From: a virus
Taxonomy: Duplodnaviria; Caudoviricetes
Direction: 5' to 3' (one strand)
Virus record (IMG/VR): IMGVR_UViG_3300013111_000391
Span: 1-60,133 of that record
DNA: 60,133 nt
Shown piece by piece: positions 1-17,934 of the stretch. The notes beneath the pieces are model-generated. The model had not been told where the DNA came from and did not search any database. It worked only from the letters and a program-made list of their open reading frames with translations. The position numbers and the translations under genes were made by a program. Positions within the stretch are counted from its first letter, which is position 1. Each line of letters opens with the position of its first letter.

Positions 1-630
1 GGATCAGCAGGATCTTCTGGTGATGATGGAACTTCTGGTTCAGCAGGATCAGCAGGCAGTACAGGTTCGGCAGGTTCAGCGGGCACAACAGGTTCCGCAG
101 GGTCCGCAGGGTCCGCAGGTTCGACTGGATCTTCTGGATCCTCTGGAACATCCGGTGCCGATGGTTCAGACGGTGATAGTTATCAAACTACATCATCATC
201 AGAATTAACTATTGGTACAGGATCAAAATCATTAACAGTTGATACAGGATTATCATATTCAATTGCACAAACTGTTTTGATTGCTTATGATGGTTCTAAT
301 ACTATGGAAGGGTCTGTTACATCTTACACTGCAGGTACAGGTGCTTTAGTTATAAATGTAACAAGTGTTACTGGTTCTGGTACAGAATCATCTTGGGATG
401 TTAATCTTGCAGGAGCCTCTGGTGGCGATGGCACATCTGGTTCAGCAGGTAGTGCAGGTTCTTCTGGTTCAGCAGGTAGTGCGGGGTCGGCAGGCACAAC
501 AGGATCGACTGGTAGTGCAGGATCAACAGGATCAGCAGGATCATCAGGTACAACTGGTACATCTGGTTCTTCTGGAGCAGATGGTGTTATTGGTACATCT
601 GGTTCTTCTGGAACAGATGGTGGTGCAGGT
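1..630 (+). repeat. Coding 9-bp-period repeats (ggN-tcN-gca/tct) in two tracts, about 1-177 and 412-630
   Basis: Recurring ggttcagca/ggatcagca/ggttcttct units encode Gly-Ser-Ala and Gly-Ser-Ser triplets. Confidence 0.85.
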
Positions 631-1416
631 TTTGACTATCGAAATTTAGCAACGACCGCCTATAGAGTTTCAACCTCGGGAAATAATTACATATTAAAAC
701 ATCCAGATGGAACACAACTATCAGGTAACAATCCTACAATAAGAATTAAAGCAGAACAAACAATATGTTTTTATCTTGAAGGTGTGTCGGCCAGTCATCC
801 ATTCGCAATAAGAAGTGCATCCGGTGATGCAAATGATTACAATACAGGTTTGGTGCATTTTGATGGAACATCGACATATGTGACTGGATCATCAGCACAA
901 GATAAGACATCAGGATATTTGTTTTGGACACCTCCACAAGCATTAGGTGGAACCACTTACAAATATCAGTGTATTAATCATGCATCTATGATAGGTGATA
1001 TTGAAATTAGTAGTATTCAAGGTGGTGCTACTGGTTTGCAAAATAGAGTATCCACTTCTGCTACAACAAGTTCAATTGCTGATGATGCTTCTGATAATAT
1101 ATCTGTAACAGGATATAATTCTTATGCTCTTCTTTCCGTACAGACTGATAGAGCCGCCTGGGTGACAGTATATTCATCATCTTCTGCAAGAACATCTGAT
1201 GCATCAAGAACTATTGATACTGATCCGGAACCTGGTAGTGGTGTAATTGTAGAAGTTGTAACAGATGCGGCTGATACTCAAATTATCACACCAGCGGCGG
1301 TTGGTTTTAATGAATCTACGAGTGATAGTGGTACGATTTATATGAAAGTTGTTAATTTGTCTGGTTCTACAAGTACAGTACAAGTTACACTTACAGTTCT
1401 AAAATTGGAGAACTAA
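1..1416 (+). CDS. Tail fibre / virion structural protein with Gly-X-X (GSA/GSS/GTS) repeats and a candidate cupredoxin-like domain (5'-truncated by the window)
   Basis: Frame 1 is open from base 1 (GSAGSSGDDG...) into ORF 277..1416. Two Gly-X-X Ser/Thr tracts, an HPF...YQCINHASMIG motif and a Ser/Thr-rich beta-type C-terminal domain. Confidence 0.75.
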   Translation, partial: GSAGSSGDDGTSGSAGSAGSTGSAGSAGTTGSAGSAGSAGSTGSSGSSGTSGADGSDGDSYQTTSSSELTIGTGSKSLTVDTGLSYSIAQTVLIAYDGSNTMEGSVTSYTAGTGALVINVTSVTGSGTESSWDVNLAGASGGDGTSGSAGSAGSSGSAGSAGSAGTTGSTGSAGSTGSAGSSGTTGTSGSSGADGVIGTSGSSGTDGGAGFDYRNLATTAYRVSTSGNNYILKHPDGTQLSGNNPTIRIKAEQTICFYLEGVSASHPFAIRSASGDANDYNTGLVHFDGTSTYVTGSSAQDKTSGYLFWTPPQALGGTTYKYQCINHASMIGDIEISSIQGGATGLQNRVSTSATTSSIADDASDNISVTGYNSYALLSVQTDRAAWVTVYSSSSARTSDASRTIDTDPEPGSGVIVEVVTDAADTQIITPAAVGFNESTSDSGTIYMKVVNLSGSTSTVQVTLTVLKLEN

Positions 1417-3032
1417 TGAGTGAAGAAAAAGAATATATTGTTACTTTACATCGAAAAAAAGATGCAGAACAATTTTATGAAGAGATGGAGACCAATAAAT
1501 CTACTGAATCCATACCTTCTAAGAATTTTTATTGTGATAAGAGAAGAGAAATAAGCAGAAACACGCATTATTATATGACAGATGAAGAAGCCAGACAAAT
1601 TATGAATGATGATAGAGTGATGGCGGTAGAAGAACCTCCTGAAAATAGAGGTATTGAAGTAAGACCAGCATTTGAGTATGATAGTACAACTCATTTTGAC
1701 AAAGGTGGTTCAACGTCAAACTCTAAAGTTCAATGGGGTATTTTGAGATGTTGTTCTGGAATATCTTCATCGGCAGAATATGCAGGAAGTTGGTTGCCTC
1801 GATCAATAGTCAGTACAGGAAATGAAGAAGGTCAAAATGTCGATATAGTTATTGTTGATGGTTGTATTGATCCGGATCATCCAGAAATGGCTGTTAATTC
1901 TGATGGTACTGGCGGAACAAGAGTTGTACAGAGAAATTGGACCAGTTCTTATACATATACACCTTATGTTGATAGTGGAAATAGTAGTCGAACAAACGAT
2001 AACAATCATGGGTGTCATGTAGCAGGTACGGCGGCAGGTAACAGACAAGGTTGGGCAAGACAAGCAAACATTTATAATTTAAATCCATATGGTTCCGCTC
2101 CTACAAACATAAATTCTTCTTTAATCTTTGATTATATAAGAACATTTCATAATGGAAAAACAAATGGTAATCCAACAGTCGTAAATAATAGTTGGACGTA
2201 TATTGCTTATGATACATATCCTATTAGTACAGTTGTATATCGAGGAACAACATATAATAATGTCAGTCTGACCGATGGTAATGATTATGGTATAAATCAT
2301 GCAAACACAACTCATTGGTTAGTACACTCACGAGTTAGTGGTGTTGATGCAGACTTGACAGATTGTATAGATGATGGTATTATAGTTATTGGTGCCCATG
2401 GAAATTATAATATGAAAATAACTGCAAATACATCCGATCAAGATTATAATAATTATCTATATGATGGAGGATCGACAAAATTTTATTGTAAAGGGGGATC
2501 ACCAACACACTCTGCTGGCACTATTAGTGTAGGATCTGTATATAATGCATATACTGGTGGTTCAAGTAGAAATGATGCTACTGCCTATTACAGTAACAAA
2601 GGTGATAGAGTTGATGTTTGGGCACCAGGTAGTGCAATACAAAGTTCAGTTCATTCTGGTGGTGTAGCCGATGATAGAGATAGTAGTTATTATATAACAC
2701 AATATAATGGTACAAGTATGGCATCACCACAAGTTACTGGTATTGTAGCATGTGTAGTTGGTGTTTATAGAGATTTTACACAAGCAGATGTTTTAGATTA
2801 TTTAATTAGCAGATCAACATATGATCAACTATATGATTCTGGTTCAGCAGATCATGATAACACTTACAATTTGATGGGTGCACCTAATAGACATTTACAT
2901 TTTCATAGAGAACGTAAAATATCAGGTCATGTAACACCAGATGCAGATAGACGAATACGAGATACACATTCTACTTCTACAAGACAGACTTACCCTAGAA
3001 TGAAACGAAATTATTTGAGTGGAAACTCATAA
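1416..3032 (+). CDS. S8 family (subtilisin-like) serine peptidase
   Basis: Catalytic triad motifs IVIVDGCID (Asp), NHGCHVAGTAAG (His) and NGTSMASPQVTG (Ser). The start overlaps the fibre stop (taATG). Confidence 0.92.
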   Translation: MSEEKEYIVTLHRKKDAEQFYEEMETNKSTESIPSKNFYCDKRREISRNTHYYMTDEEARQIMNDDRVMAVEEPPENRGIEVRPAFEYDSTTHFDKGGSTSNSKVQWGILRCCSGISSSAEYAGSWLPRSIVSTGNEEGQNVDIVIVDGCIDPDHPEMAVNSDGTGGTRVVQRNWTSSYTYTPYVDSGNSSRTNDNNHGCHVAGTAAGNRQGWARQANIYNLNPYGSAPTNINSSLIFDYIRTFHNGKTNGNPTVVNNSWTYIAYDTYPISTVVYRGTTYNNVSLTDGNDYGINHANTTHWLVHSRVSGVDADLTDCIDDGIIVIGAHGNYNMKITANTSDQDYNNYLYDGGSTKFYCKGGSPTHSAGTISVGSVYNAYTGGSSRNDATAYYSNKGDRVDVWAPGSAIQSSVHSGGVADDRDSSYYITQYNGTSMASPQVTGIVACVVGVYRDFTQADVLDYLISRSTYDQLYDSGSADHDNTYNLMGAPNRHLHFHRERKISGHVTPDADRRIRDTHSTSTRQTYPRMKRNYLSGNS

Positions 3033-3038
3033 AAAAAC

Positions 3039-3067
3039 TTGACAATATGACAGTGTTACGTTATTAT
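3039..3067 (+). promoter_or_regulatory. Sigma70-type (early) promoter
   Basis: TTGACA (3039-3044), 17 bp spacer, TATTAT (3062-3067), intergenic, with an A-tract upstream. Confidence 0.8.
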
Positions 3068-3110
3068 ATGTTTGTAATGAGTTTTTAAACCTTAAACTAC
3101 GAAAGGTAAT

Positions 3111-3314
3111 ATGTCAGAAGAAATGGTCGCAAGACTGATTAGCGAATATCGTGCAGAAGCATATGCTACTGCAATGGCCGCACGAGATGTACATGCATCT
3201 ATTGATGCGGCGATGATTGAGTTTTGTGATGAAGTTATTGAGAGACATGGGCTTGAAGAAGCCGATGCAGTGGAAGTCACCAAGGCTTTCGTTGATGAAT
3301 ATAGTAACCTTTAA
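3111..3314 (+). CDS. Small acidic hypothetical protein
   Basis: 67 aa ORF with an aaggt RBS, directly after the promoter. Confidence 0.7.
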   Translation: MSEEMVARLISEYRAEAYATAMAARDVHASIDAAMIEFCDEVIERHGLEEADAVEVTKAFVDEYSNL

Positions 3315-3328
3315 TTATAAATTTAAAA

Positions 3329-3568
3329 ATGTTTGATGTTAATCCATTCAAAAAACAATTGGATGTTCGTCATCTAATTCATGAAGACTATAAGTATGCC
3401 GCCATGGATTGGGACAGAACATGGTGGGTCTTTACACATAAACCTAATTGTGTAGATGATATGTGGGATTCAAAAGAAGGTCGTTCAGAAAAAATTGTTG
3501 AACGAGCAGTTGAGACCACAGATTGGCGTAGTTCACTTGTTGAACTTGAAACAATTATTGAGGACTAG
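3329..3568 (+). CDS. Hypothetical protein
   Basis: 79 aa ORF with an AMDWD..WW...KP...W....DWRSSL pattern typical of small phage proteins. Confidence 0.65.
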   Translation: MFDVNPFKKQLDVRHLIHEDYKYAAMDWDRTWWVFTHKPNCVDDMWDSKEGRSEKIVERAVETTDWRSSLVELETIIED

Positions 3569-3580
3569 TAGTGGGCATGT

Positions 3581-3655
3581 GCCCCGATAGTTAAATGGAT
3601 ATAACAGTAGACTTCTAATCTTCTATTTCAGGTTCGATTCCTGGTCGGGGTACCA
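3581..3655 (+). tRNA. tRNA-Arg (TCT)
   Basis: Acceptor stem GCCCCGA/TCGGGGT, anticodon loop CTTCTAA, T-loop GGTTCGATTCC, encoded CCA. Confidence 0.9.
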
Positions 3656-3849
3656 TGATTGTACAAGGTATAGCAAACAAAGTAGTACAAACAGTTGTGT
3701 CTAGAAAAATTGCTAATAAGATTTATCCTGTTATTGATAAATCTGATCCTGGTTATGTTGTAGAAATTACAAAAGTTGTTTGGATTCCTACTAAATACCC
3801 GAAAGCAATTGGTTATGACAGGTACGGTAGATATACATTTGATAAATAA
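3655..3849 (+). CDS. Small hypothetical protein between tRNAs
   Basis: 64 aa ORF exactly filling the Arg-Thr spacer. Confidence 0.5.
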   Translation: MIVQGIANKVVQTVVSRKIANKIYPVIDKSDPGYVVEITKVVWIPTKYPKAIGYDRYGRYTFDK

Positions 3850-3925
3850 GCCAGCGTAACTCAATTGGTAGAGTAGCACACTTGTAATGTGAAAGTTGGG
3901 GGTTCAATTCCTCTCGCTGGCTCCA
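3850..3925 (+). tRNA. tRNA-Thr (TGT)
   Basis: Acceptor stem GCCAGCG/CGCTGGC, anticodon loop CTTGTAA, T-loop GGTTCAATTCC, encoded CCA. Confidence 0.92.
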
Positions 3926-3940
3926 AAATAAATATAAACA

Positions 3941-4081
3941 ATGGCAAAATCAGTAGGTACATACGTAAGAAAAAAGTTAAAGAGGTATAAGAGAACTTCT
4001 ATTGGAAAGTCTCGATGGTCGAGACCTAAAAATAAAAATAAGAGAGGTAATTGGAAACGATATCGTGGCCAAGGAAGATAA
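3941..4081 (+). CDS. Small basic protein (46 aa) ending KRYRGQGR, not in the supplied ORF track
   Basis: Translated by hand: MAKSVGTYVRKKLKRYKRTSIGKSRWSRPKNKNKRGNWKRYRGQGR*. The YRGQG end resembles small proteins I recall from marine T4-like phages. Confidence 0.75.
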   Translation: MAKSVGTYVRKKLKRYKRTSIGKSRWSRPKNKNKRGNWKRYRGQGR

Positions 4082-10488: not shown

Positions 10489-11710
10489 TTTAGATTTTCT
10501 AATTACTTTAAAAGAAGAACAAGGTGAAACAAAAGTGAGCGAAAATTTAAATCGATTATTTAAATTCGATGAACCAATATTATTATATGATATGACTGAA
10601 GGTTCTAGAATGTGGCCCGTTGACATAGAGGGAGATGTCCCAAATGATGGCGTGGCATATGTATTTTATAGGGTACATGAAGGTTTAAAAAATCACAAAC
10701 ACGATATTTGGTTTTTATGCTCTGATTTAAATATTAAAGAAAGATATGAAAAATTTTGTTCATTAACTGGCTCTGAAAAAAAATTTAAATTATTATGTTT
10801 TCCATTTTCTATACAAACTGGTTTTCCAAGTTGGACAACAAAAGATATAAGAAAATTAAACAAAATACCAAACAAATGGAATTTTTGTCAATTGACTTCA
10901 AGTCCTCAAACTACGAGGGTGGCCACTATCGATAGATTTTATAAAAATAAAAACTTTCAATATTCATATGTTCCACAATTTCATTTCGAAAAAAATGAAG
11001 ACATTCGTCATAGGATTTACTATGCAGAGGAAAATGAACCAAAGTGGTGGTCCGAAAATTACAAGTTTAAAAATGGGTTTAATATACATTCGTCAAAACT
11101 TTTGACCGAAATAGACTTAAATAATACGGATGTTGATATGGGTCCTGAAAATATTTTGATAAACGGCATTTATTTGAATAAGGGTGTGTTTAATCACATG
11201 CTACCTGTTGAAAATCATGAGTCTTGTTGTGATATTGTCATAGAAACATATTGTAGTGGTCCTACATTTTTTACGGAAAAAACTTGGAAAGAAATATTTT
11301 TTGAGCGTCCGTTTATTCTTATGGGAGGTAAAGGGTATAATAAAGCGTTACAGAATTTGGGTTTTGAAATTTTTGAAGAGATATTTGATTATAGTTTTGA
11401 CGATGAATTACATACTTATACGAGGATGAAGTTATTTTGGGAGCAAATTGAAAAATATATTAATTTAAATGTGAAAGATTTCGCATCCAAAATAAAAATA
11501 TTAGATGAAAAAGTTAAACACAATAGAAAATTATACATTGATTACTTAAATAATTATGATTTAATATATAAAGTTTATGATCAAGAATATTTACACAATG
11601 ATAATAATTATTTGGTGTATTCGAATCGGGATGAAGATCTTTTCAATGACTATTCGGATATTCAGTTTAAAATTTTAAAAAAAACGTGTACAGGGTATTT
11701 CGATGTATAA
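10475..11710 (+). CDS. Putative glycosyltransferase-like protein (paralog of 18492..19346)
   Basis: C-terminal DIVIET...FFTEKTWK.....PFI..G...GFE.F.EIFDYSFD, reminiscent of the GT10-type TEK motif. Confidence 0.5.
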   Translation: MKTVNLDFLITLKEEQGETKVSENLNRLFKFDEPILLYDMTEGSRMWPVDIEGDVPNDGVAYVFYRVHEGLKNHKHDIWFLCSDLNIKERYEKFCSLTGSEKKFKLLCFPFSIQTGFPSWTTKDIRKLNKIPNKWNFCQLTSSPQTTRVATIDRFYKNKNFQYSYVPQFHFEKNEDIRHRIYYAEENEPKWWSENYKFKNGFNIHSSKLLTEIDLNNTDVDMGPENILINGIYLNKGVFNHMLPVENHESCCDIVIETYCSGPTFFTEKTWKEIFFERPFILMGGKGYNKALQNLGFEIFEEIFDYSFDDELHTYTRMKLFWEQIEKYINLNVKDFASKIKILDEKVKHNRKLYIDYLNNYDLIYKVYDQEYLHNDNNYLVYSNRDEDLFNDYSDIQFKILKKTCTGYFDV

Positions 11711-12389
11711 ATTAGATTATGATATTACAATAACAAGTTATTGTAATGCCGCCTGTCCTTCTTGTAAGAGATATAAAGATCATAATGAAAAACATTATAA
11801 TCCTATGGAACCATTACATCCTGGTTTAAATCAAGTACATATGAATTTTTTAGAGTTTAAATCTATCATAACGAGAGATATTGATTCTTTTAAATTATCT
11901 TTTGTTACCTATGAAGGAGAACTTGGAGATGCAATGGTCCATCCAGAAATAAAAAAATTTATAGATTTTGGTGTATCTGTATTCAAAACATTAAAAATAG
12001 TTACGAATGGTGGTGTAAGAAACCCTAATTTTTATAAGTCTTTAGGGGATATCTATCAAAATTTAGAAATAATGTTCTCAATTGATGGATTAGATGACAT
12101 AACAAATCAAAAATATAGAAGAAATGTTGTTACAAAAAAGGCATATGACAATATGATTGCATATAAAAATTCAAAATATAAAAATGTGAGTTGGCAATAT
12201 GTTATATTTGAACATAATTGGTTTGAAATACCAGAAATTTTAGATATTGCGAAAACAAATCAAATAGACATAGTGCTTAAAATAAATTCAAGACCAAAAT
12301 TTAGAGTAAAAAACAATATAATTCCATACATTGTAGACTTGTATGAAAAAAATAAATTTTCCGATAGTGAATTAGTTTTGGCGAATTGA
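11703..12389 (+). CDS. Radical SAM protein, class B core without SPASM
   Basis: CNAACPSC, G.LGD, TNGG, FSIDGL...N..YR and WQYVIFEHN motifs. Confidence 0.88.
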   Translation: MYKLDYDITITSYCNAACPSCKRYKDHNEKHYNPMEPLHPGLNQVHMNFLEFKSIITRDIDSFKLSFVTYEGELGDAMVHPEIKKFIDFGVSVFKTLKIVTNGGVRNPNFYKSLGDIYQNLEIMFSIDGLDDITNQKYRRNVVTKKAYDNMIAYKNSKYKNVSWQYVIFEHNWFEIPEILDIAKTNQIDIVLKINSRPKFRVKNNIIPYIVDLYEKNKFSDSELVLAN

Positions 12390-13057
12390 TGTTAACAAAT
12401 GAAAAAACTTGTGTTTTTAATTTTGAGTTGACCTCTTATTGTAATGCAGGTTGTCCTACATGTTTTAGAACAAGATTTTTAGATTTAATACCAAAACCGT
12501 TTAAACATTTAACAACAGAAACTTTTAGCACATTTATATTAAATAATATAGAGTTTTTAAAACGAAATAATTATGAACGATTGATTGCCAAATTTTGTGG
12601 TGAAATAGGTGACCCATTAATGAATCCTTATCTCAATGAATTAACTTCAATCGCAGAAAATGTATTTGATAGAGTTGATATCTATACGAATGGTGGATTA
12701 AAATCATCAAAATGGATAAGTAATTTTTTAGTATCTTACAAGAAGGCAAGATTTGTGTTTGGTATTGATGGATTATCCGATGAAACAAATCAAATATATC
12801 GAATAAGTGTAAATACGAATAAAGCATTAGAAAATATGTTTATGGCATCTAAATACAGGGAAACACGTTGGGATCATACAATATTTGAACACAATCATCA
12901 TGAGTTACTTGATGTAATACGATTGGCCAAAAAACATCACTTAGATTTATTGTGTAGATTTAATGGTAGAGAATTTAAAAAAATAAAAAATGAAGATCTT
13001 TTAAGGTGTGAAGCAATATTAAAATCATCAGGGATAAAATATTCCATATGCAGATAG
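12389..13057 (+). CDS. Radical SAM protein, class B core without SPASM
   Basis: ELTSYCNAGCPTC, FCGEIGDP, TNGG, FGIDGL and IFEHN motifs. Confidence 0.88.
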   Translation: MLTNEKTCVFNFELTSYCNAGCPTCFRTRFLDLIPKPFKHLTTETFSTFILNNIEFLKRNNYERLIAKFCGEIGDPLMNPYLNELTSIAENVFDRVDIYTNGGLKSSKWISNFLVSYKKARFVFGIDGLSDETNQIYRISVNTNKALENMFMASKYRETRWDHTIFEHNHHELLDVIRLAKKHHLDLLCRFNGREFKKIKNEDLLRCEAILKSSGIKYSICR

Positions 13058-13323
13058 AATGTGATTTTTACAATTATAGATTTAAAACTTGGGAACAATA
13101 TGAAATAGATGTTGATATGAATTTGTATCCATGTTGTCACATATATACTCAAAAATTAGAATTTGGGGAAATTGATGATGTCTTTAAACATATTGATATT
13201 AGTTTAAAGACGAATACATTTGAAAATATAGCCAATGAATATAATAAAATTTTAACGGAAGAAAATTGGAAAGATGAAAAAACATGCCCTCCCCGTTGTA
13301 TGAAAATCTGCCAGAAAACATAA
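13048..13323 (+). CDS. Stand-alone SPASM/Twitch-like Fe-S domain protein
   Basis: C....YPCC......CPPRCMKIC, matching the C-termini of the class B radical SAM proteins in this window. Confidence 0.7.
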   Translation: MQIECDFYNYRFKTWEQYEIDVDMNLYPCCHIYTQKLEFGEIDDVFKHIDISLKTNTFENIANEYNKILTEENWKDEKTCPPRCMKICQKT

Positions 13324-13643
13324 ACAAAAATTTAAGAAATCTTGCGAAGGATCATGAAGATCTAGTCTATTGTGTTGGTTGGCACGAGCATCAAGATTGG
13401 GCTGAGGTCGAGATATCATCTGATTTTAGGGTTTATCCTTGTTGTACTTTACATGCTGTACATCAACTTGAAAAAACATTTTTTGACGATAAATTAGATT
13501 CTATGGACAAAGATTGGAATAATTTAAAAAAACATCGATTAAAAGACATAATGAAAATTTGGAGAGAATATATTTCACCTGATAAATGGAAAAGAGAAGA
13601 AACTCTTCCACAATGTTGTGATAAGTTATGTCGAGCAAAATAA
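13284..13643 (+). CDS. Stand-alone SPASM/Twitch-like Fe-S domain protein
   Basis: YC....VYPCC....NNLK......CCDKLC. Confidence 0.7.
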   Translation: MPSPLYENLPENINKNLRNLAKDHEDLVYCVGWHEHQDWAEVEISSDFRVYPCCTLHAVHQLEKTFFDDKLDSMDKDWNNLKKHRLKDIMKIWREYISPDKWKREETLPQCCDKLCRAK

Positions 13644-14434
13644 TAATTTTTGGTGATAGTTTTGCAGATCCTGAAGATAGACGAGTTGAAAACAAAGAAG
13701 TTACTGCTTGGTATGAATTTTTAGGTCAAGAATATAAAATAAAAAATTATGCATTAGCAGGGACAGGTCCCCACTACTCATTTAAAAACTATTATAATTT
13801 TATTTCTAATGGTGAGAATAAAGAAGAGTATATTTGTATTTTTTTATTAAGCGGAGAAGACAGGATTCATTATCCTGGTACAAATCCACAAACTTTAAAT
13901 AATATACATTGGGATTTTGATGAAAAAAAAAGTTGGTGGGTAGAAGATAACAAGAAACTGAAACAAAAAGAATATTATGAAAATTTTAAATCTGAAATTG
14001 ATTTTTTATTTTTGACGATGCATGATGATTTAGTATGGTCAAATTTTAAAAATCTAGGTTTTTTGCATATGAATTCTCTTTTATTGGGAATGAAAACGAT
14101 AGTTTTTTACACTTGTGGTTTAAAAATATTAAACAATATGATTTATAAGAATTTTTTTAAATTGAACACCTCTTATTTTTATTTAAGCACAAAAATATTA
14201 GGCACTGTTGCTCAAGAAGAAGTTGTCGATAAAAAAGAACTTGATAGATATAATTATCATGATTATAGAAGAAATCATTTATCACAAGAAAATCATATCA
14301 TATTATATGAAAATATAAAAAACATAATCAAAAATAAAAAAGAATTAAAACCATATGTCAAAAATTTGAATTATGCGAGTAATTTTGGGAAAATGTTTTA
14401 TACAGGTAAAATAGGAGAATTTATCTATGATTAA
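13628..14434 (+). CDS. SGNH/GDSL-like protein
   Basis: IFGDSF, N.A..GTG and RRNHLS..NH motifs. Confidence 0.6.
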   Translation: MSSKIIIFGDSFADPEDRRVENKEVTAWYEFLGQEYKIKNYALAGTGPHYSFKNYYNFISNGENKEEYICIFLLSGEDRIHYPGTNPQTLNNIHWDFDEKKSWWVEDNKKLKQKEYYENFKSEIDFLFLTMHDDLVWSNFKNLGFLHMNSLLLGMKTIVFYTCGLKILNNMIYKNFFKLNTSYFYLSTKILGTVAQEEVVDKKELDRYNYHDYRRNHLSQENHIILYENIKNIIKNKKELKPYVKNLNYASNFGKMFYTGKIGEFIYD

Positions 14435-15122
14435 AAAAATTAAATACGATCAAACAAAATATAACTTCAAAAACGTTTTTGAAAAACATTTCGAAGAAGA
14501 TTTAGATAAATTACATAAGAAATTTGAATTTGAACGCAAATTTTCAAACATGGCAGGAGGCACAGAAGAATTTTCTCTTGTTGCTGAAACATATACAAAG
14601 GTTATTCGAACTTCTGTTTTTAATGAATTATGGGTTTCTTTTATTCAAGAGGTCCTTAAACCATATTTTGATGATAGGAAAATTTATGTGCAAAAATTAC
14701 CTTCATTTAGGATATTCCCATCTCTTCATTCTATTCAATATGTGCAAAAAATTACTGATGGTTTTAATAAACATTTAGATAGTGAACCACCGTTTTATCA
14801 TCCTACTTTTGAAACGAATTTTTGGATTCCATTAATTGAATGTGATTTTCTTAATGATTTTTACTATCTTGATAAAGAAAAAGATTGGTATAGAAGAATA
14901 GATGCACGGATGAATGAATTAGTTGTTTTTGGTAATGATGTTGTTCACGGTAATCGTGTACATAATGAATCGCCTAATACAAGATGTTCACTGGATTTCA
15001 AAGCACTAGCAGTTGACGATTATGATGAAAGTGTTTTGACAGATCGTATTATTTTAAAACGAGGACAAAAGTTTAAACAAAAGGATTGGTATAGCACAAA
15101 ACATTATTATATGGAAATGTAA
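14427..15122 (+). CDS. StrG-like / 2OG-Fe(II) dioxygenase-fold protein
   Basis: Q..PSFR, HLD....HP..E.NFWIPL and HGN...N.S..TR.SLDF motifs. Confidence 0.7.
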   Translation: MIKKIKYDQTKYNFKNVFEKHFEEDLDKLHKKFEFERKFSNMAGGTEEFSLVAETYTKVIRTSVFNELWVSFIQEVLKPYFDDRKIYVQKLPSFRIFPSLHSIQYVQKITDGFNKHLDSEPPFYHPTFETNFWIPLIECDFLNDFYYLDKEKDWYRRIDARMNELVVFGNDVVHGNRVHNESPNTRCSLDFKALAVDDYDESVLTDRIILKRGQKFKQKDWYSTKHYYMEM

Positions 15123-16135
15123 TGGAAATATTTTCTGTTAATGATTGGGATCCACTCAAAGAAATAATAGTTGGTCGTGCCGATTTTGCTTATATACCAC
15201 CTCCTGACCCATCAATGAAAAATTTCATGTATGCTAATTTGTCATATCATGAAATTTCAAAATTCGTTGGTTCATACAGTGATAAAGTCATTGATGAGGC
15301 CAATCAAGATTTAGAGGAGTTAAGCGATAAATTAAAAGAACTTGGTGTCAAAGTTTATAGACCAAAACAAGTTAGACATGATGCATCAATAGTCACTCCA
15401 TATTGGAAAACAACTGGTTGGCATAATTATTGTCCTCGTGACATTTTTTTAGTGCTTGGAACGAGCATTGTTGAAGTACCGAGTGTGATGAGATGTCGAA
15501 TTTTTGAAACTTGGTCATATGATGATATTTTACATGAAGCATTTGATGATGGAGCTAAATGGTTTTCGGCCCCAAAACAAAGATATAAAGAAGAAAGTTT
15601 TAACTTTGATGATCTAAGCAAACCTACTCTAATGAATAAAGAGATACTATTTGATGCACCAAATGTTGTTCGTCTTGGAATGGATCTTCTATATCAAGAG
15701 AGTAATAGTGGTAATGAGAAGGGTGCTAAATGGTTACAGAGCATGTTTCCTGAATATAAAATACATATTGAACGAAATGCTTATTCTGGAGCACATATGG
15801 ATAGCACAATAATTCCATTGCGTGAAGGTCTTGTGCTTTTTAATGGTTTCAGGGTAACACCTGATAAATATCCAAAAATTTTTGAAAAATGGGATAAAAT
15901 ATTTTTTCATAATTTTCCTATGATAAAAACAGAAGCCTCTGGAATTTCATCTGATGCGATTGGTGTGAATTTATTAAGTGTTAATGAAAAACTTGTTATT
16001 GTAGACGAGAATCAAACTGAATTGATAAAAACATTGTTAAGATATGGTATTGAAAGCATACCGATGCCAATGAGACATCAAAGAACATTAGGAGGAGGGT
16101 TTCATTGCGTGACATTGGATCTAAAAAGAGGATAG
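15122..16135 (+). CDS. Amidinotransferase (glycine / inosamine-phosphate amidinotransferase family)
   Basis: NDWDPLKEIIVG, CPRD, FDA.N, H.DST and GGGFHCVTLD (catalytic Cys) motifs. Confidence 0.92.
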   Translation: MEIFSVNDWDPLKEIIVGRADFAYIPPPDPSMKNFMYANLSYHEISKFVGSYSDKVIDEANQDLEELSDKLKELGVKVYRPKQVRHDASIVTPYWKTTGWHNYCPRDIFLVLGTSIVEVPSVMRCRIFETWSYDDILHEAFDDGAKWFSAPKQRYKEESFNFDDLSKPTLMNKEILFDAPNVVRLGMDLLYQESNSGNEKGAKWLQSMFPEYKIHIERNAYSGAHMDSTIIPLREGLVLFNGFRVTPDKYPKIFEKWDKIFFHNFPMIKTEASGISSDAIGVNLLSVNEKLVIVDENQTELIKTLLRYGIESIPMPMRHQRTLGGGFHCVTLDLKRG

Positions 16136-17934
16136 CATTCCTTGAGTTGTCTCATATTTTTGCAAATCAAGTTAAATTACCGTATTCAACAGGATGTATT
16201 TGGAGTTATTGTAGGAAGATAGATGAAATATCGAATAATTTTTCTTTTGATCTTCATGATTGGTTCTATGTACTTGATGGTGAATTTGATGTAAATGATG
16301 CCGCCAAAAAGTTGTCTGAATGTGATGTTGTAGGTGTTTCATATTTTGTATGGAATACATTCAAATCAGATAAAGTTTGTGCAGAGATTAAAAAAATAAA
16401 TCCAGATTGTCTGATTGTTTATGGCGGTTTAGGCACACCAAAATATGGCAGATGTTCTGATTTTTTAAAGGAACGTCCATATGTTGATATAATCGTGCAT
16501 AATGAAGGAGAAATAGTTTTTTCTAATTTGTTAAAGGCAATTATTCACGATAAAGATTTTTTAACAGTCAATGGTATTACGACACAAACTTTTAGCACAC
16601 CATTAGAAAGTCGAATTAAAGACTTTCCATCAATGCCTAGTCCATATCTTGATGGTTTATTTGATGAACTAAATTCTATAAAAACAAATACTTATAATTG
16701 GGAAAGTCTAATAGAATTAGAGAGAGGTTGTCCATATACTTGTACATTTTGTGAGGTTGGTGATAGACATTGGACAAAAGTTATAAAGCAAGATTATGAG
16801 AAAATGGTTGCTGAAATTAATTGGGTTTCGAAAAGAAAAATTGAATATTTGCATTTAATTGATAATAATTTTGGTATGTTTAAAGAGCATAAAATTATAT
16901 CAGATTTGTTAATAAAAAATTATCAAGAATATGGTTATCCTAATGCTTTAAACATCACATGGGCTAAACATAAAAAACCATATTTGTTTGATATAGCAGA
17001 AGAATTGTGGAAAGCAGGTCTGAATAAAAGTGTGACCATAGCATTACAATCGATGAATTCACCCACATTGAAAGCAGTAGAACGAGCAAACGAAAACACA
17101 AATTTAAAACAAGTTATAGAGTATTTGAAAAAAAGAGGTATGCCTGCCTATATAGAAACTATACTTGGTTTACCTGAAGAGACATTTGACACTTTCAAGC
17201 AGGGATTGTATACTTTAATGGATGACATTGATTATCATAACTATGTAGGAATTTATGTAATGGTTGCTCTTCCAAATACACCATTTGGAGATGATGCATA
17301 TCTCAAAAAATATGGAGTTCAGATAAGACAAACGCCACCTGCTTTTTATCATCATGAACATCCACCAGATCAACTTCTAGAAGATTTGAATAATGTCGTA
17401 GTTGGTTCTAACGTCATGACTTTCGATGATTACATAAAAGCATCAGGATGGAAATGGTATATAACTACATTTCATTTTCTAGGGTGGCTTAGAATTTTGG
17501 CATTAGATTTGAAGAAAAAATATAATCTTACAATGAAAAATTTTTATGATGATTTATTTGATTGGGCGATGAATGATAGTGGAACAATGTTAAATGAAGA
17601 ATATTATGAAACCATTAATTCAACAAATAGGGTTTTTGAAAGAGAAATACCATGGGGTAGAAAAATATCAGATGTATCTGACACTTATTGGGAATATGAA
17701 GAAGCAACTTCAATCAATATTGCAAAAAATAAAGATAGATTCTATAATGAAATCAAAAGTTTTTTAGATATGAAATACAATATAAAAGAAGATATCATTA
17801 AAAAACAATATGACAAAATGATAGATCCATATGTGGATTATGATGGTGATTTAGAAAAATGGGCTAGAGAATGTATGTGGTGGGGTAGAAGAGCCGAATC
17901 GTTTTTTCACGGAGGACAACATGGAGTATCATAG
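16105..17934 (+). CDS. Cobalamin-binding radical SAM protein
   Basis: N-terminal B12-type domain (S.FVWN, YGG, EGE), SPYL.G, ERGCPYTCTFC, D.NFG, LQS and ILGLP.ET motifs. Confidence 0.9.
   Translation: MRDIGSKKRIAFLELSHIFANQVKLPYSTGCIWSYCRKIDEISNNFSFDLHDWFYVLDGEFDVNDAAKKLSECDVVGVSYFVWNTFKSDKVCAEIKKINPDCLIVYGGLGTPKYGRCSDFLKERPYVDIIVHNEGEIVFSNLLKAIIHDKDFLTVNGITTQTFSTPLESRIKDFPSMPSPYLDGLFDELNSIKTNTYNWESLIELERGCPYTCTFCEVGDRHWTKVIKQDYEKMVAEINWVSKRKIEYLHLIDNNFGMFKEHKIISDLLIKNYQEYGYPNALNITWAKHKKPYLFDIAEELWKAGLNKSVTIALQSMNSPTLKAVERANENTNLKQVIEYLKKRGMPAYIETILGLPEETFDTFKQGLYTLMDDIDYHNYVGIYVMVALPNTPFGDDAYLKKYGVQIRQTPPAFYHHEHPPDQLLEDLNNVVVGSNVMTFDDYIKASGWKWYITTFHFLGWLRILALDLKKKYNLTMKNFYDDLFDWAMNDSGTMLNEEYYETINSTNRVFEREIPWGRKISDVSDTYWEYEEATSINIAKNKDRFYNEIKSFLDMKYNIKEDIIKKQYDKMIDPYVDYDGDLEKWARECMWWGRRAESFFHGGQHGVS

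Follow-up and report, generated by a model that had tools for sequence, protein, structure and literature searches.

Four overlapping genes at positions 11703-13643 of a virus record in IMG/VR (IMGVR_UViG_3300013111_000391; the whole stretch of 60,133 bp is hereafter the window) probably encode two complete two-subunit radical S-adenosylmethionine (SAM) enzymes, in each of which the auxiliary iron-sulfur domain is a separate small protein. The first two genes, core1 and core2, encode only the radical SAM core, and the following two, SPASM1 and SPASM2, encode only the auxiliary-cluster domain. On the evidence of the sequences, this module appears to be a natural, ancient and virus-borne two-subunit form of Twitch-type radical SAM enzymes with an unusual nested gene order, which departs from the known members of the group in that the domain is carried by a chain of its own.

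Two radical SAM cores are followed by two free auxiliary domains

Each open reading frame (ORF) of the module is shifted by -1 in frame relative to the preceding one, with overlaps of 4 (or 1), 10 and 40 nt between successive genes (Table 1). The start of core2 at the ATG at 12389 agrees with the TAATG and TTGATG junctions found in its relatives. We dropped the common reading frame of core1 and SPASM2 as a meaningful feature, because it is the mere outcome of three successive -1 overlaps.

Both cores contain a CX3CX2C motif (SYCNAACPSC in core1, with C14-x3-C18-x2-C21; SYCNAGCPTC in core2, with C19-x3-C23-x2-C26 in the 223-aa numbering), and none of its cysteines varies among 29 core1-family and 23 core-family sequences. 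The initial annotation, made from the sequence alone, had further attributed to both genes the motifs FCG..GDP and WQ..FEHN. This holds for core2, which reads FCGEIGDP and WDHTIFEHN, while core1 preserves the second motif (WQYVIFEHN) and has YEGELGDA at the place of the first. The 'class B' to which these cores had been assigned was a label of that annotation and is unrelated to the cobalamin-dependent class B methylases. Core1 ends with a conserved L-x-L-[AG]-N and the auxiliary-cluster domain is absent from it. We also considered the C-terminal cysteine of core2 as an extra ligand and rejected it, as its TGC codon overlaps the ATG-CAA start of SPASM1 and the residue is missing in two related loci (L026 and L027).

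The window also hosts fused paralogs (33289, 43356, 45965 and 52647), in which Radical_SAM and SPASM domains are both present. The two cores align with the N-terminal two thirds of these proteins (E 1e-19 over the radical SAM half), and the small proteins align only with their C-terminal third. When compared with Pfam Radical_SAM (PF04055; gathering cut-off 29.5), core1 scores 20.1 bits (E 8e-4) and core2 27.5 bits (E 4e-6); a precomputed match to the same family is present on many close core homologues. Pfam SPASM (PF13186; cut-off 21.5) gives 18.0 bits for SPASM1 (E 3.5e-3) and 14.8 bits for SPASM2 (E 3.5e-2), while TIGR04085 (cut-off 27) gives 16.4 for SPASM1 and no match for SPASM2. Only generic radical SAM matches were obtained from NCBIfam and PHROGs. 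SPASM1 has cysteines at C5, C29, C30, C79, C83 and C87, and SPASM2 starts with an N-terminal extension of 26 aa (PLYENLPE...). Taken together, the ORFs, the motifs and the profile homology confirm the two core-only and two free-domain genes of the initial annotation.

The small proteins are Twitch-like

The free domains had been called SPASM at first, a name that is too loose. A profile of the small proteins aligns with that of the C-terminal domain of the fused proteins over 88 columns with the cysteines in register (hhalign, probability 96.9%, E 1.8e-10), which confirms that the two are homologous. The cysteine pattern is not that of SPASM. The free domains have four invariant cysteines (C30, C53, C112 and C116 in SPASM2 numbering) and a nearly invariant fifth, C54; the first four are equally invariant in the fused proteins. 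In the available text of PMC6231123, the SPASM motif is given as CX9-15GX4C-gap-CX2CX5CX3C-gap-C, with two auxiliary clusters. Neither this seven-cysteine motif nor CX2CX5CX3C occurs in the free domains or in their fused relatives. For the Twitch domain of BtrN, the same text describes one cluster, for which the hairpin is flanked by a ligand cysteine on either side and two more follow the last helix. The order of the cysteines in the free domains agrees with this pattern, both in sequence and in the predicted structure. With four invariant cysteines instead of the seven-cysteine motif, the free domain is therefore predicted to be Twitch-like with a single cluster, and not SPASM.

The AlphaFold2 model of SPASM2 (mean predicted local distance difference test, pLDDT, of 88.8) places a short strand or bridge between C30 and C53, around residues 43-51; C112 and C116 lie on a terminal helix (residues 110-116). 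When searched against solved structures, the model of free SPASM2 returned no Foldseek match and a best VIA Z of 2.1, an outcome that carries no weight for or against a Twitch fold. The model of a fused paralog matched BlsE (7vob, E 3.3e-10, TMq 0.63), SkfB, SuiB, viperin, anSME, BtrN (4m7t) and MoaA, and the matches to BlsE, SkfB, BtrN and anSME extend along the whole length. In the ESM Atlas, SPASM2 lies among small viral proteins, with PF13186 detected in 19-92% of cluster members.

The split is conserved in related viruses

To describe the family, we scanned viral contigs with the core alignment, which led to 193 confirmed relatives, and annotated the best 80 loci with custom hidden Markov models. 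A scan with core2 as a single protein had given no confirmed relative; the core alignment later recovered relatives of core2 as well. The order core-core-domain-domain (AABB) is present in 17 of the 80 loci, at least one directly adjacent core-to-domain pair (AB) in 38, the reverse order domain-to-core in 4, and a pair with a gap between its members in 1. In another 15 loci all forms are fused or long, and contig ends truncate the last 5. The domain is therefore a separate ORF with its own start codon in 59 loci (38 AB-type, 17 AABB and 4 reverse). Tandem arrays also occur among the 38 loci with adjacent pairs, as doubles (L050, L077) or triples (L043, L045/L051).

The size of the homologous proteins follows the same division. 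Among 73 homologues of core1, the 63 with at least 47% identity measure 126-347 aa; the longest (P0055, 347 aa), which was the only long one of the four sequences read, has an N-terminal extension and no C-terminal domain. Fused homologues of core1 are found at 33-34% identity (P0065, P0066), and fused forms occur only at 36% or below. Similarly, 40 homologues of core2 with 37-91% identity have 195-277 aa, and 14 of the 20 homologues at 38% identity or below have 330-390 aa. We detected 28 relatives of SPASM2 among 1.84 billion representatives, all of 48-188 aa. A scan of 185,579 species genomes with the core alignment, which relied on two peptide patterns so that absence from cellular genomes does not follow from it, returned one locus (L096, 1250-2248). 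It encodes a fused paralog similar to 33289 and lies on a contig end of 27.7% GC, binned in a metagenome-assembled genome of Chloroflexota, and it is probably phage DNA in that bin.

Overlapping ORFs in successive -1 frames superficially resemble the result of frameshifts, and the initial annotation itself had pointed to an assembly error (12389 fused to 13048) or to decaying fragments as ways in which its reading could fail. When viral contigs were scanned with core1, we found 10 loci with 56-67% identity; the four ORFs have the same order and relative frames in 8 of them, and the other 2 end at contig edges. Overall, 17 related viral contigs, which come from many samples and have protein identities of 47-69%, share the AABB order, in addition to the wider family of two-gene modules, so that the search for the same split in related phages was successful. 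Contigs from Logan, derived from runs of four studies, span 12386, 13040-13060 (the site initially singled out for an indel check) and 13284-13323 without any indel, and the only indels detected are a compensating pair at 11804/11807 in one contig. We also measured the ratio of nonsynonymous to synonymous substitutions (dN/dS, Nei-Gojobori) in the window and six distinct relatives. It is below 1 for every gene and pair (0.11-0.79 pairwise); compared to the window, it amounts to 0.24-0.35 for core1, 0.31-0.50 for core2, 0.11-0.40 for SPASM1 and 0.11-0.43 for SPASM2. The split is family-wide, all 28 relatives of SPASM2 are small, and sequencing or assembly error and recent gene breakage are refuted as far as sequence data allow, with practically no probability left to them. 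The four genes are separate, and their order cannot derive from one frameshift, as initially stated. A different possibility is that core2 and SPASM1 are made as one protein, through programmed -1 frameshifting or termination-reinitiation at their 10-nt overlap, in which case core1 and SPASM2 alone would be truly separate. SPASM1 does lie in the -1 frame of core2, and the overlap of 10 nt is found in 7 of 10 distinct AABB versions (window, L001, L002, L003, L006, L014 and L018). However, no X-XXY-YYZ slippery heptamer is present upstream of the core2 stop, SPASM1 always starts with its own ATG, and the overlap differs elsewhere: L007/L008 are still split, with a different core2/SPASM1 junction (a 40-nt overlap), whereas it is 8 nt in another frame in L026 and 4 nt in L027. 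Of the 46 distinct core-to-domain junctions in the family, 25 put the domain in frame +2, 20 in frame +1 and 1 in frame 0, each time with a start codon of its own. Variable frames and own starts therefore exclude a conserved frameshift site, and we consider production as a single protein very unlikely.

A single fission is the simplest origin

We built trees of 64 cores and of 64 domains. In the former, 55 of the 56 split cores form one clade as opposed to the 8 fused forms (support 99/98). The exception is an unrelated radical SAM gene (L046, 1906-2661) that was mis-paired with the SPASM2-type gene and whose row stays in both trees. In the latter, all 56 free domains form one clade as opposed to the 8 fused C-terminal domains (99/96). 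Because split cores and free domains each group together in this way, the simplest reading is a single ancient fission of a fused ancestor composed of a core and a Twitch-like domain. The break is located just before the first auxiliary cysteine, and in the model of the fused paralog 45965 a linker of low confidence (residues 190-200) lies ahead of C207. These data indicate that the ancestor split once, in the linker before the first cysteine of the auxiliary cluster, and that the resulting module of core and small protein then spread and duplicated in marine T4-like phages. In the lineage of the window, a core2-SPASM1 module sits between core1 and SPASM2, giving the order core-core-domain-domain.

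A different radical SAM gene is also divided in one of the loci. In L012 it consists of two ORFs (2810-3520 and 3517-3960, 236 and 147 aa) with an ATGA overlap, and the second one starts just ahead of a cysteine-rich part (GRPCCGS). The same gene is fused in L011 (2838-4004, 388 aa) and L013 (2811-4004, 397 aa). The gene may have broken recently and independently at a linker of the same type, or the contig may contain an error.

Cores and domains are best read as two nested pairs

To assign each domain to a core, we compared the positions of the two in the trees and along the contigs. In the core tree, core1 groups with the single-module cores of L041 and L061 (100/98), and core2 belongs to a clade (100/99) whose sister group is formed by the single-module cores of L011-13 and L037 (94/85; 100/97 in a smaller tree). 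SPASM2 shares a group with the small proteins of L041, L061 and L046 in the domain tree (87/90; subclade 99/96), while nine SPASM1 sequences form their own clade on a long stem (100/99). The single modules closest to core1 and to SPASM2 of the window are the same two, L061 and L041. In both of them, the core1-type core is directly followed by the SPASM2-type protein, and in L046-49 the two types are adjacent in reverse order; in all these loci neither core2 nor SPASM1 lies between. The L061 contig has a separate second module ~10 kb away, whose core is closest to the core2 type (39%) and whose small protein is closest to the SPASM1 and L011 types. Since the core1 type adjoins the SPASM2 type in three other arrangements, the sequences of the window are best read as two cognate pairs, one nested within the other: core1[core2-SPASM1]SPASM2.

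We then modeled the complex of core1 and SPASM2, a check that the initial annotation had recommended. The interface score (ipSAE) is 0.92 in three runs, compared to 0.00 for the best of 3 controls. The mark used for such models is reached by 58 of 80 solved complexes and by 2 of 110 mismatched pairs. The predicted interface has 104-112 contacts, with a partner pLDDT of 84-86 and at least 95% contact agreement between runs. In the model, strand 4-12 of core1 pairs with residues 42-46 of SPASM2, and the C-terminus of core1 (224-228) touches the N-terminal extension of SPASM2 (5-19). Together with the conserved split, the dN/dS below 1 and the independent starts, the model suggests that an auxiliary iron-sulfur domain supplied in trans, as initially proposed, is the most likely arrangement.

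Several observations weigh against two cognate pairs of this kind. The Pfam and NCBIfam matches of all four ORFs fall under the curated cut-offs, and the FCG cysteine and the GDP proline are altered in core1. The domain tree leaves SPASM1, SPASM2 and the L011-type small proteins unsorted among themselves. In a global mirror-tree correlation, the two pairing schemes could not be told apart (Pearson 0.875 and 0.879), and the Spearman coefficient is higher for the alternative one. The pairing of core2 with SPASM1 is assigned partly by elimination, in addition to adjacency and one extra module. Complex modeling covers core1 with SPASM2, one of four possible pairs, and both proteins entered it as custom family alignments. 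Its score of 0.92 may reflect memory of, or likeness to, solved fused SPASM/Twitch structures rather than binding. The substrate that we suggest below with low confidence is drawn solely from gene neighborhood and fold matches.

The initial annotation had raised the possibility of combinatorial pairing, in which either domain serves either core and up to four enzyme forms arise. The unsorted domain tree and the equal outcome of the mirror-tree test favor this possibility, as do the four genes themselves, which look co-transcribed and are always co-inherited in the 17 AABB contigs; complex models, moreover, are often passed also by close cousins of the true partner. Against it stand the adjacency of core1-type and SPASM2-type genes without the other pair in L041, L061 and L046-49, the modules of tandem arrays (L043, L045), which are inherited as units in both trees, and the distance between the two modules on the L061 contig. 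On balance, combinatorial pairing did not find support and we regard it as improbable. It is even harder to maintain that the small proteins are free, undocked cysteine-rich proteins, such as electron carriers of the ferredoxin type, proteins for cluster delivery or peptides that serve the cores as substrates. SPASM maturases are known to act on small cysteine-rich peptides, and the lack of a solved-structure match for the free SPASM2 model would fit this idea. The small proteins, however, share profile homology and the same four invariant cysteines with the fused C-terminal domain, they always adjoin a core that lacks exactly that domain, and the complex model sets their hairpin against strand beta1 of the core. 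We therefore give undocked proteins very little credit compared to two nested pairs of core and small subunit.

The module lies next to an amidinotransferase and a radical SAM island

The window has a CheckV completeness of 16% and ~29% GC, and nearly all of its genes are on the + strand. Because its RNase H resembles those of Methylophilales phage Melnitz (53% identity) and of cyanomyophages (48-49%), we assign the virus, from sequence similarity, to the marine T4-like myoviruses. A DNA-level search of the module region against a phage collection gave zero matches. The collagen-repeat and subtilase genes at the beginning of the window (Table 1) are compatible with a tail-fiber or host-recognition region.

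Table 1. Genes of the module and other features of the window
Feature	Position	Strand	Length	Evidence and remarks
core1, radical SAM core-only subunit	11703..12389	+	228 aa	ORF, motifs, Pfam
core2, radical SAM core-only subunit	ATG 12389 or TTG 12386, to 13057	+	222 aa (ATG) or 223 aa (TTG)	
SPASM1, stand-alone Twitch/SPASM-like auxiliary-cluster subunit	13048..13323	+	91 aa	
SPASM2, stand-alone Twitch/SPASM-like auxiliary-cluster subunit	13284..13643	+	119 aa	
268-aa protein	13628-14434		268 aa	Starts IIIFGDSFADP; kept beside the module in relatives; no Pfam or PHROG match
StrB1-like amidinotransferase	15122..16135	+	337 aa	phmmer against PDB: 1bwd inosamine-phosphate amidinotransferase, E 3.4e-82
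Cobalamin-dependent radical SAM enzyme	16105-17934		609 aa	B12-binding and Radical_SAM domains; directly downstream of the amidinotransferase
Collagen-repeat protein, then subtilase	1-3032			Pfam Collagen E 2.4e-17; Peptidase_S8 E 3.7e-24

The module is preceded by genes for a PD-(D/E)XK nuclease and a 417-aa protein, and it is followed by the 268-aa protein, a 231-aa protein and the amidinotransferase. The initial motif of the 268-aa protein is presumably GDSL/SGNH-hydrolase-like. The amidinotransferase also resembles HsvA, SxtG and glycine amidinotransferase, and it had zero Pfam matches at E 0.01 or better. The same gene run through the amidinotransferase is found in L001, L003-L006, L016, L018, L020 and L022-L024, which are AABB loci with enough DNA. 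No amidinotransferase match is present in L007/L008, L017/L019 and L026-L032, though their DNA extends far enough. Most but not all AABB loci thus keep the amidinotransferase as a neighbor of the module. In addition, a homologue with 28% identity adjoins the reversed SPASM2-core1 pair in L046-49.

Further downstream, ~24 ORFs of at least 85 aa with a CX3CX2C motif lie between 16105 and 58457 and form an unusually dense radical SAM island. They fall into two classes. In one, CX3CX2C is close to the N-terminus and a C...PCC...CxxxC domain is at the C-terminus; in the other, PCC occurs at residues ~20-40 and is followed by CX3CX2C at ~90-135 (N-terminal Twitch, with weak NF033640 matches).

Comparison with known systems

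The Twitch enzymes BtrN, BlsE, SkfB and MoaA combine, as here, a partial barrel with a hairpin/helix domain for the auxiliary cluster, and in BtrN the order of the cysteine ligands is the same as that of the four invariant cysteines. The known enzymes, according to the available text of PMC9012708, bear the domain at the C-terminal end of a single chain, whereas here it is a separate protein of 80-140 aa. The sequence similarity between the phage module and the characterized Twitch members is far under the family cut-offs. The SPASM enzymes anSME, PqqE and SuiB (PF13186, TIGR04085) give weak profile matches to the module, and SuiB and anSME are among the structures matched by the fused paralog model; they differ in having the seven-cysteine, two-cluster motif, as opposed to four invariant cysteines and no CX2CX5CX3C. 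We found no description of a stand-alone, split or separate SPASM or Twitch domain in open-access papers and bioRxiv.

Division of an enzyme gene has a precedent in T4-like phages. The nrdA gene of Aeromonas phage Aeh1 was reportedly fragmented by the insertion of a homing endonuclease. As far as described in the available text of PMC3045599, this gene is in two pieces whose products must associate, and its fragmentation is tied to a mobile genetic element. As in the module, the enzyme of a T4-like phage is divided into two associating products. The nrdA case, however, is a single one and involves a mobile element, while here there is no mobile gene, the fission lies in a domain linker, and it is ancient and family-wide; the DNA inserted in the window is itself a further module of this type. 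Pelagimyophages, which are marine T4-like phages of streamlined heterotrophs, have radical SAM cassettes together with glycosyltransferases in a hypervariable host-recognition island, and the portion of PMC7029224 available to us mentions these cassettes without any auxiliary-domain split. The window likewise belongs, by our assignment, to a marine T4-like virus with a radical SAM island.

Proposed mechanism and implications

We propose that each core forms a partial triosephosphate isomerase (TIM) barrel, whose CX3CX2C cluster would cleave SAM, and that each core docks its own small subunit. The beta-hairpin of the subunit would extend the sheet of the core at strand beta1. The subunit would bind one [4Fe-4S] cluster, with the invariant cysteines as its four ligands: the first precedes the hairpin, the second follows it, and the remaining two come after the last helix. 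This cluster probably serves as acceptor for the electron from the substrate radical, a role proposed for the auxiliary cluster of BtrN (available text of PMC9012708). The overlapping stop and start codons may couple the translation of successive genes and thus keep the subunits in balance.

The amidinotransferase neighborhood and the fold matches to Twitch enzymes that modify sugars and cyclitols suggest, with low confidence, that the substrate is a sugar or an aminocyclitol of the amidinotransferase pathway. A more speculative extension, which we consider unlikely, is that the two enzymes are BtrN-like dehydrogenases, which would catalyze the two-electron oxidation of an aminocyclitol or sugar hydroxyl, in a phage pathway to a guanidinylated aminocyclitol or amino sugar, which could be an aminoglycoside-like compound or a surface decoration. 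The pathway would be encoded in the island, with its ~24 radical SAM genes, glycosyltransferases, the B12-radical SAM enzyme and the amidinotransferase, and the free subunit would let phages re-pair cores and redox subunits as cassettes. If true, such re-pairing of cassettes would explain the tandem and nested arrays of modules.

According to the available text of PMC9012708, ~165,000 radical SAM genes encode a C-terminal extension of the SPASM or Twitch kind, and opinions still differ on what the auxiliary clusters do. The separate handling of individual clusters is a recognized technical problem in multi-cluster iron-sulfur proteins (PMC10337720, in the text available). A separate, co-evolving auxiliary subunit would offer a ready-made tool for this, as the two clusters could be expressed, isotope-labeled and reconstituted apart. 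The module further suggests that the interface between core and auxiliary domain can be maintained non-covalently through long evolutionary periods, and it may offer a practical way into the radical SAM cassettes, as yet unexplored, that abundant marine phages have in their hypervariable islands.

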